This document shows, one piece after another, positions 11,709 to 11,876 of a DNA stretch of 16,531 nt (positions are counted from its first letter, which is position 1; every line of letters starts with the position of its first letter). The stretch is from UHGV virus genome UHGV-1602447, one strand, 5' to 3'. A model generated the notes under the pieces. The model worked only from the letters and a program-made list of their open reading frames with translations. It was not told the DNA's origin and searched no databases. The DNA is from a virus. Made by a program: the position numbers and the translations under genes.

Positions 11709-11795
11709 ATGGAAGAAGAATTTGAAGAGTTCGAAGAGCATCCTCAGGATGTGATGGAACAATACCAGGACTATCCGTATGACTGCGACTATTGA
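11709..11795 (+). CDS. 28-aa acidic micro-ORF with strong RBS (uncertain gene)
   Basis: GAGGTGAGAT-ATG; translation MEEEFEEFEEHPQDVMEQYQDYPYDCDY. Overlaps the start of the ral remnant. Too short to assert function. Confidence 0.25.
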   Translation: MEEEFEEFEEHPQDVMEQYQDYPYDCDY

Positions 11796-11876
11796 TAAGA
11801 ATCAATGGTGTGGGCAATACGAACGACGGCAATGATTGCCAGAGAACTTGGTAAACAGAACAACAAAGCTGCCTGA
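11779..11876 (+). pseudogene. ral: ral (restriction alleviation) remnant with about 100-nt internal deletion and frameshift
   Basis: Frame 1: MTATIDKNQWCGQ then YERRQ-stop. A second frame encodes ...IRTTAMIARELGKQNNKAA-stop. Both ends match lambda Ral (MTTTIDKNQWCGQ...AIRTTAMIARELGKQNNKAA) as I recall it; the middle third is missing. Confidence 0.55.

Follow-up and report, generated by a model that had tools for sequence, protein, structure and literature searches.

The viral genome UHGV-1602447, analysed here over its whole 16,531-nt stretch (hereafter, the window), very probably carries a dead lambda-type anti-restriction gene, ral, at the usual place of this gene in the pL operon of a mosaic lambdoid prophage. 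Relative to lambda ral, exactly 103 of the 201 nt, encoding Ral residues 14–45, are missing, and the alignments indicate that the window ral is most likely a null allele. An earlier note on this DNA had claimed an internal deletion of about 100 nt and, by comparison with the 66-aa lambda Ral, the loss of the central part of the protein, and had suggested a pairwise alignment with lambda ral and a survey of ral in related prophages. The alignment upheld both claims, and the survey, described below, located the same deletion in many other genomes. The features of the locus are as follows.

11378 to 11650, plus strand: antiterminator N, 90 aa, intact (PF25694 N_peptide, E = 2.2e-32, positions 5–100 of 100)
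11709 to 11795, plus strand: orf28 homologue, 28 aa, MEEEFEEFEEHPQDVMEQYQDYPYDCDY, intact (PHROG 16060, E = 3.6e-18, full length)
11779 to 11876, plus strand: ral remnant, a probable pseudogene of 98 nt, recognised from alignments, from Pfam and PHROG matches at the profile ends only, and from an identical PGAP pseudogene in strain 5CRE51
11779 to 11835, plus strand: frame-0 reading, MTATIDKNQWCGQYERRQ, 18 codons followed by TGA at 11833–11835, with codons 14–18 out of frame
11805 to 11876, plus strand: frame +2 ORF of 23 codons, MVWAIRTTAMIARELGKQNNKAA, holding the last 21 codons of ral
11811 to 11818, plus strand: deletion junction, TGGGCAAT, a microhomology common to both repeat copies, from the alignment with lambda
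12011 to 12042, plus strand: intrinsic-terminator-like hairpin and T-run downstream of ral, from a terminator scan; conserved with lambda, ECP1, and E212
12052 to 12363, plus strand: P22 gp17-like "superinfection exclusion" gene, 103 aa, intact (PF17420, E = 6.6e-55; PHROG 1510)
within 12388 to 12573, plus strand: cIII, intact, with a full-length family match

The remnant reads ATGACTGCGACTATTGATAAGAATCAATGGTGTGGGCAATACGAACGACGGCAATGATTGCCAGAGAACTTGGTAAACAGAACAACAAAGCTGCCTGA, with the ral start at one end and the ral stop at the other. Its alignment with lambda ral (NC_001416 34087–34287; 201 nt, 66 aa; protein MTTTIDKNQWCGQFKRCNGCKLQSECMVKPEEMFPVMEDGKYVDKWAIRTTAMIARELGKQNNKAA, locus L001) contained a single gap of 103 nt between near-identical flanks (96.8% identity), so that the first 32 nt and the last 66 nt of the gene are kept. 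Alignment with the intact allele of strain Z1323HEC0300, which has the same gp17-like neighbour, gave the same single gap, together with six substitutions and one single-base indel over the shared stretch. Because 103 is not divisible by 3, the two halves of ral lie in different frames. The frame-0 reading begins with 13 Ral-like codons, as the earlier note had stated; 12 of these 13 residues match lambda Ral, the sole substitution being T3A, and the TGA at codon 19 is the stop that the note had placed soon after the junction of the two frames. The 19 last codons that it had counted are in fact 21 plus the stop, in frame +2, and the corresponding residues are identical to W46–A66 of lambda Ral. 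The 32 central residues gone from the remnant include three of the four Ral cysteines (C17, C20, and C26), and the 18-residue frame-0 peptide, which has no counterpart of residues 14–66, is without these three cysteines and the whole C-terminal part.

Profile searches gave the same picture. Pfam PF11058 (Ral), which covers profile positions 1–66 on full-length lambda Ral, matched the 23-aa ORF at positions 46–66 (E = 2e-10) and the conceptually joined N- and C-terminal parts in two stretches (E = 3.5e-17); PHROG 1055 ("restriction alleviation ral") likewise matched at the two profile ends only (1–13 and 46–66). The match of the remnant to Ral is far beyond chance. No uninterrupted ORF of about 59–66 codons spanning the PF11058 profile was found at the locus, where profile positions 14–45 are without counterpart. 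A PDB sequence search with lambda Ral returned no relative of solved structure.

The placement in the pL operon is also that of Ral: the remnant lies downstream of N, overlaps orf28, and precedes cIII, and its start is offset by 401 nt from the start of N, as in loci with intact Ral. Four of these loci (L128, L129, L131, and L135) encode the same 90-aa N and an intact Ral at the same offset. The last 17 nt of orf28 overlap the ral start, and lambda orf28 occupies the same relative position. The orf28 product is very acidic (12 acidic residues of 28), and the gene, which is fully conserved, was intact in every deleted allele inspected. Since N, orf28, the gp17-like gene, and cIII all match their families over the full length, the damage is confined to ral, and with the rest of the operon intact the accessory function of ral alone would be lost. 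The lambda Ral locus thus resembles that of the window in lying in the pL operon after N, in overlapping orf28, and in having flanks that are about 97% identical, and differs in possessing residues 14–45 and an open frame, whereas the window can make no Ral-length protein.

At the other side of orf28, N ends in ...YRKSKQLTAR and a stop codon, and the next 50 nt encode, in another frame, ...MTCVGRQKMKLGSKPLI and a stop codon (window 11584–11700, plus strand). We take the latter sequence to resemble the C-terminal end of the N protein of phage 21, in which case the N gene would finish in a mosaic recombination joint. Between N and cIII, relatives that share this N gene had intact Ral, other cargo, or no ral, a variation that fits the treatment of the ral neighbourhood as a variable accessory region (bioRxiv 10.1101/2023.04.06.535777).

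The window as a whole is the early region of a mosaic lambdoid prophage, in the orientation opposite to the standard lambda map. The minus strand carries a holin gene, Q, the nin genes, a DnaB-type P, O, cII, and cro, and the plus strand carries cI (9025–9729), a protease-like moron, N, orf28, the ral remnant, the gp17-like gene, and cIII, followed by a Rad52-type recombinase gene, ssb, an HNH gene, and abc2-like genes. Coverage of the window reached 80% in none of the complete E. coli genomes or deposited phages. The best coverage was that of strain HZDC01 (73%), in which ral is missing from that position; the phages mEp506 (55%), HK75, and mEpX2 covered 50–55%. Rfam, applied at gathering thresholds to the entire window, detected no known RNA and, specifically, no group I intron at 4652–5687.

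Several other loci of the window deserve description. About 590 nt are inserted relative to lambda at 4652–5687 (minus strand), where an HNH endonuclease ORF (5082–5687, minus strand; PHROG 99, E = 5.6e-75) starts with a duplicate of the first ~32 codons of lambda-type ninB and is followed by a complete ninB with a divergent N-terminus (within 4652–5167, minus strand; PHROG 72, positions 6–159 of 161). The arrangement resembles the insertion of a free-standing homing endonuclease gene into the 5' end of ninB. Another HNH-type endonuclease ORF, of 159 aa (14156–14635, plus strand), lies between ssb and an abc2-like gene. Where lambda has rexAB, between cI and pL, a two-gene cassette (9853–10926, plus strand) encodes a 300-aa SDH-type ClpP-like serine proteinase (PF01972; PHROG 11747) and a 56-aa protein (PHROG 28875). 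In the contig collection, 1311 blocks index the identical protein, beside several different immunity regions. HZDC01 and 5CRE51, which share the pL/N region, encode a different SDH proteinase at this place (24% identical over a 70-residue local match). The cassette may be a prophage-encoded defence or exclusion moron.

The ral deletion is not peculiar to the window. We searched complete E. coli genomes with a probe of 44 nt that has the junction at its centre and is designed so that intact alleles give no seed match. The junction of the window (J1) was present in 42 of 5426 genomes, at 46 places that were all chromosomal, and the carrier strains came from humans, poultry, cattle, and wastewater. 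A second junction form (J2) was found in 17 further genomes (18 places) and a third (J3, the type of phage E212) in one genome, whereas the 103-nt middle segment of lambda ral occurred in 793 complete genomes (886 places). The survey of related prophages that the earlier note had suggested thus gave the 103-nt deletion at about 65 of 951 ral loci in complete E. coli genomes (~7%, or ~1 in 15), with the middle segment intact at the other 93%. The 98-nt remnant was also present in 12 of 120 loci sampled from IMG/VR, a public collection of viral contigs, and two deposited phages carried a deletion junction, ECP1 that of the window and E212 J3, versus 55 records with an intact middle.

In strain 5CRE51 (NZ_CP021175), CA593_RS28865 is identical to the window over all 98 nt and is annotated by PGAP as "antirestriction Ral family protein, frameshifted". 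The upstream N gene and the pL region are also the same, but downstream of ral 5CRE51 has small hypothetical genes where the window has the gp17-like gene; since this cargo differs, the same ral allele sits in a different mosaic. ECP1 (KY979108) and E212 (MZ043897), both isolated phages, share with the window the 103-nt deletion and the 98-nt remnant. The ECP1 remnant differs from that of the window in two extra stop codons in its downstream part, and the E212 remnant in another crossover point in the repeat, its junction being GGACAATTCAAGCG-GCGG. The dead ral allele is already present and annotated in public genomes, and is in this sense ordinary and already known.

These occurrences bear directly on the alternative, allowed by the earlier note, that assembly or sequencing produced the deletion in the window and that ral is intact in the real phage. 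The deletion does end in a short repeat, where polymerases and assemblers can slip, but an 8-nt repeat at 103-nt spacing is far too short for assembly collapse, and the identical junction recurs in the 42 complete genomes, which come from unrelated projects, in the independently sequenced isolate ECP1, and in IMG/VR contigs; the PGAP pseudogene of 5CRE51 speaks against it as well. We consider an assembly artefact very unlikely, to the point of having scarcely any chance of being correct, and regard the deletion as belonging to the phage.

The deletion lies between the copies of an imperfect direct repeat. The upstream copy, TGGRCAAT, corresponds to ral codons 11–13 and the downstream copy, TGGGCAAT, to codons 46–48, 103 nt apart; the forms taken by the upstream copy are TGGGCAAT and TGGACAAT. 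In intact alleles the repeat extends to TGGACAATTCAAGCG at codons 11–15 and TGGGCAATACGAACG at codons 46–50, exactly 103 nt downstream. Among the 99 intact alleles tabulated, TGGACAATTCAAGCG was the upstream copy in 78 and TGGGCAATACGAACG the downstream copy in 81, and in one intact allele the fourth base of TGGACAATTCAAGCG was G instead of A. The window junction reads TGGGCAATACGAACG, which places the break within the shared TGG/CAAT. A repeat finder also reported an adjoining GCAATG repeat at 104-nt spacing, so the two ends of the ral gene share about 30 nt of loose similarity.

We suppose that the 103 nt would have been lost by slipped-strand mispairing or short-homology recombination at this imperfect repeat (TGGRCAAT...CG), which, as far as the sequences tell, may be the most economical explanation of the deletion. 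The mechanism is plausible rather than demonstrated because the repeat is weak in most alleles (11 of 15 positions identical, with exact microhomology of 3–4 nt). A 201-nt gene would, by a rough estimate, contain as much similarity by chance, so the likeness of the ends gives no pointer to a dedicated mechanism.

Every remnant inspected was 98 nt long, yet the junction sequence varied. J1 (GGGCAAT-ACGAACG) and J2 (GGACAAT-ACGAACG) are one transition apart, whereas between J2 and J3 there are four differences in a stretch of 8 nt, and three of them bring back the sequence of the upstream copy; a further form, J4, reads GGGCAATACGAGCGGCGG (locus L082). In J3 the upstream-copy bases continue further rightward than in J1 and J2, which points to a separate crossover or to later patching by gene conversion. 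In addition, two deleted alleles (L015 and L021) have a junction-adjacent T that is also found in seven intact alleles, and deleted alleles occur on several flank haplotypes and in phages of different virion type (ECP1, Hendrixvirinae; E212, Lederbergvirus). In the window, the left 122 nt flanking ral are identical to those of an intact allele (L007) and the right 130 nt to those of lambda; although each flank alone thus had a match with no difference, no intact allele among those sampled matched the window in both. Taken together, the junction variants suggest more than one deletion event or later sequence patching.

Conceivably, then, the 103-nt deletion is a recurrent hot-spot at the imperfect repeat that is favoured by selection and held at about 7% since the loss of Ral benefits some lysogens or phages; for example, Ral expressed from a prophage might weaken the type I restriction barrier of its own host. 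Recurrence would account for at least three junction sequences that each lack exactly 103 nt, for differences between J3 and J2 that are hard to reach via point mutation, for the junction-adjacent T that L015 and L021 share with a subset of intact alleles, and for the spread of deleted alleles over flank haplotypes and over the two virion types. However, J1 and J2 differ by a single transition, constant lambdoid recombination could spread one old deletion that was then patched by gene conversion, and the repeat is no better than the rough chance estimate for a gene of this length. Selection is further opposed by the intact middle segment at 93% of the ral loci, by the non-essential nature of ral (Zabeau 1980, as cited in the review PMC12707154), and by the observation that Ral triggers programmed cell death in none of the ECOR strains (bioRxiv 10.1101/2023.04.06.535777). 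We judge this combination of recurrence and selection unlikely. Because lambdoid phages recombine freely, recurrent deletion and the spread of a single old deletion would both fit these data.

It is also conceivable that the remnant is still functional, as the 18-residue peptide, as the 23-codon ORF, or through a -1 frameshift that rejoins the halves. The ral start codon and an upstream AGGA are retained, so a short peptide may still be made; the 21 C-terminal codons happen to follow an in-frame ATG at 11805; and the deleted allele persists at about 7% of the ral loci. Nonetheless, inspection of the sequence before the junction revealed no slippery heptamer, for which reason a programmed -1 frameshift was rejected, and no ribosome-binding site was recognisable before 11805. 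The C-terminal ORF is broken in three other remnants (ECP1, L116, and L119), where the K60 codon of the downstream part reads TAA and is followed by TAG, and it has amino-acid changes in four more (L017, L087, L063, and L118); these stops and changes fit drift rather than constraint. The remnant is, moreover, without the three central cysteines, and neither Pfam nor PHROG contains a protein family for such a peptide. A residual function therefore appears highly improbable, and we retain the reading of a null allele. A 79-codon ORF that runs across the remnant on the minus strand (11677–11916) belongs to no PHROG family and was set aside as a chance ORF.

The K60 TAA codon is present in full-length alleles too. 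In many of these (e.g., the IMG/VR loci L016, L024, L027, and L043, and locus L126 at 1632–1811), codon 60 is changed from AAA to TAA (GGTTAACAG), giving a 59-aa Ral that ends in ...RELG; this form accounted for 16 of the 54 full-length alleles tabulated and is accepted by PGAP as a protein (WP_071788707.1). Like the window allele, it is a common natural truncation of ral, but it loses the last seven residues only and keeps the cysteine-rich centre, whereas the window allele loses both the centre and the frame. A third class of ral alleles has a different C-terminus, …MIERELEKLKAA. Downstream of the ECP1 remnant, ECP1_057 (locus L002, 1874–2122) is labelled "antirestriction protein ral", although its 82-aa product has no visible similarity to Ral; the label was probably mis-transferred from the adjacent remnant.

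The Rac prophage protein Lar, which alleviates restriction by type IA enzymes and is described as a functional analogue of Ral, does not bear on the ral deletion.

Ral alleviates restriction and enhances modification by type IA enzymes (EcoKI and EcoBI); it speeds first-strand methylation by the type IA methyltransferases and thereby raises the survival of unmodified phage, while type IB and IC enzymes do not respond (PMC12707154). Given these activities, the phage would no longer boost de novo methylation by type IA restriction-modification systems such as EcoKI, and its unmodified progeny would be without the help of Ral when infecting type IA hosts. The remnant may persist because ral is non-essential, as the cited review reports, and sits between conserved flanks that are exchanged by lambdoid recombination. 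We also considered the loss of Ral as an escape from a host sensor. A large, systematic screen that tried accessory genes of phages on the ECOR strains, the only such screen found, reports programmed cell death with Ocr and ArdA but in no strain with Ral (bioRxiv 10.1101/2023.04.06.535777), and this idea is thus unsupported.

With about 1 in 15 ral loci deleted, annotators who meet a 98-nt "Ral" pseudogene at this position should take it as expected and not suspect an assembly error. For the prophage itself, on the basis of its sequence, the finding means that it is very probably unable to soften type IA restriction via Ral on entering a new host, which would be a small detail of its host range.
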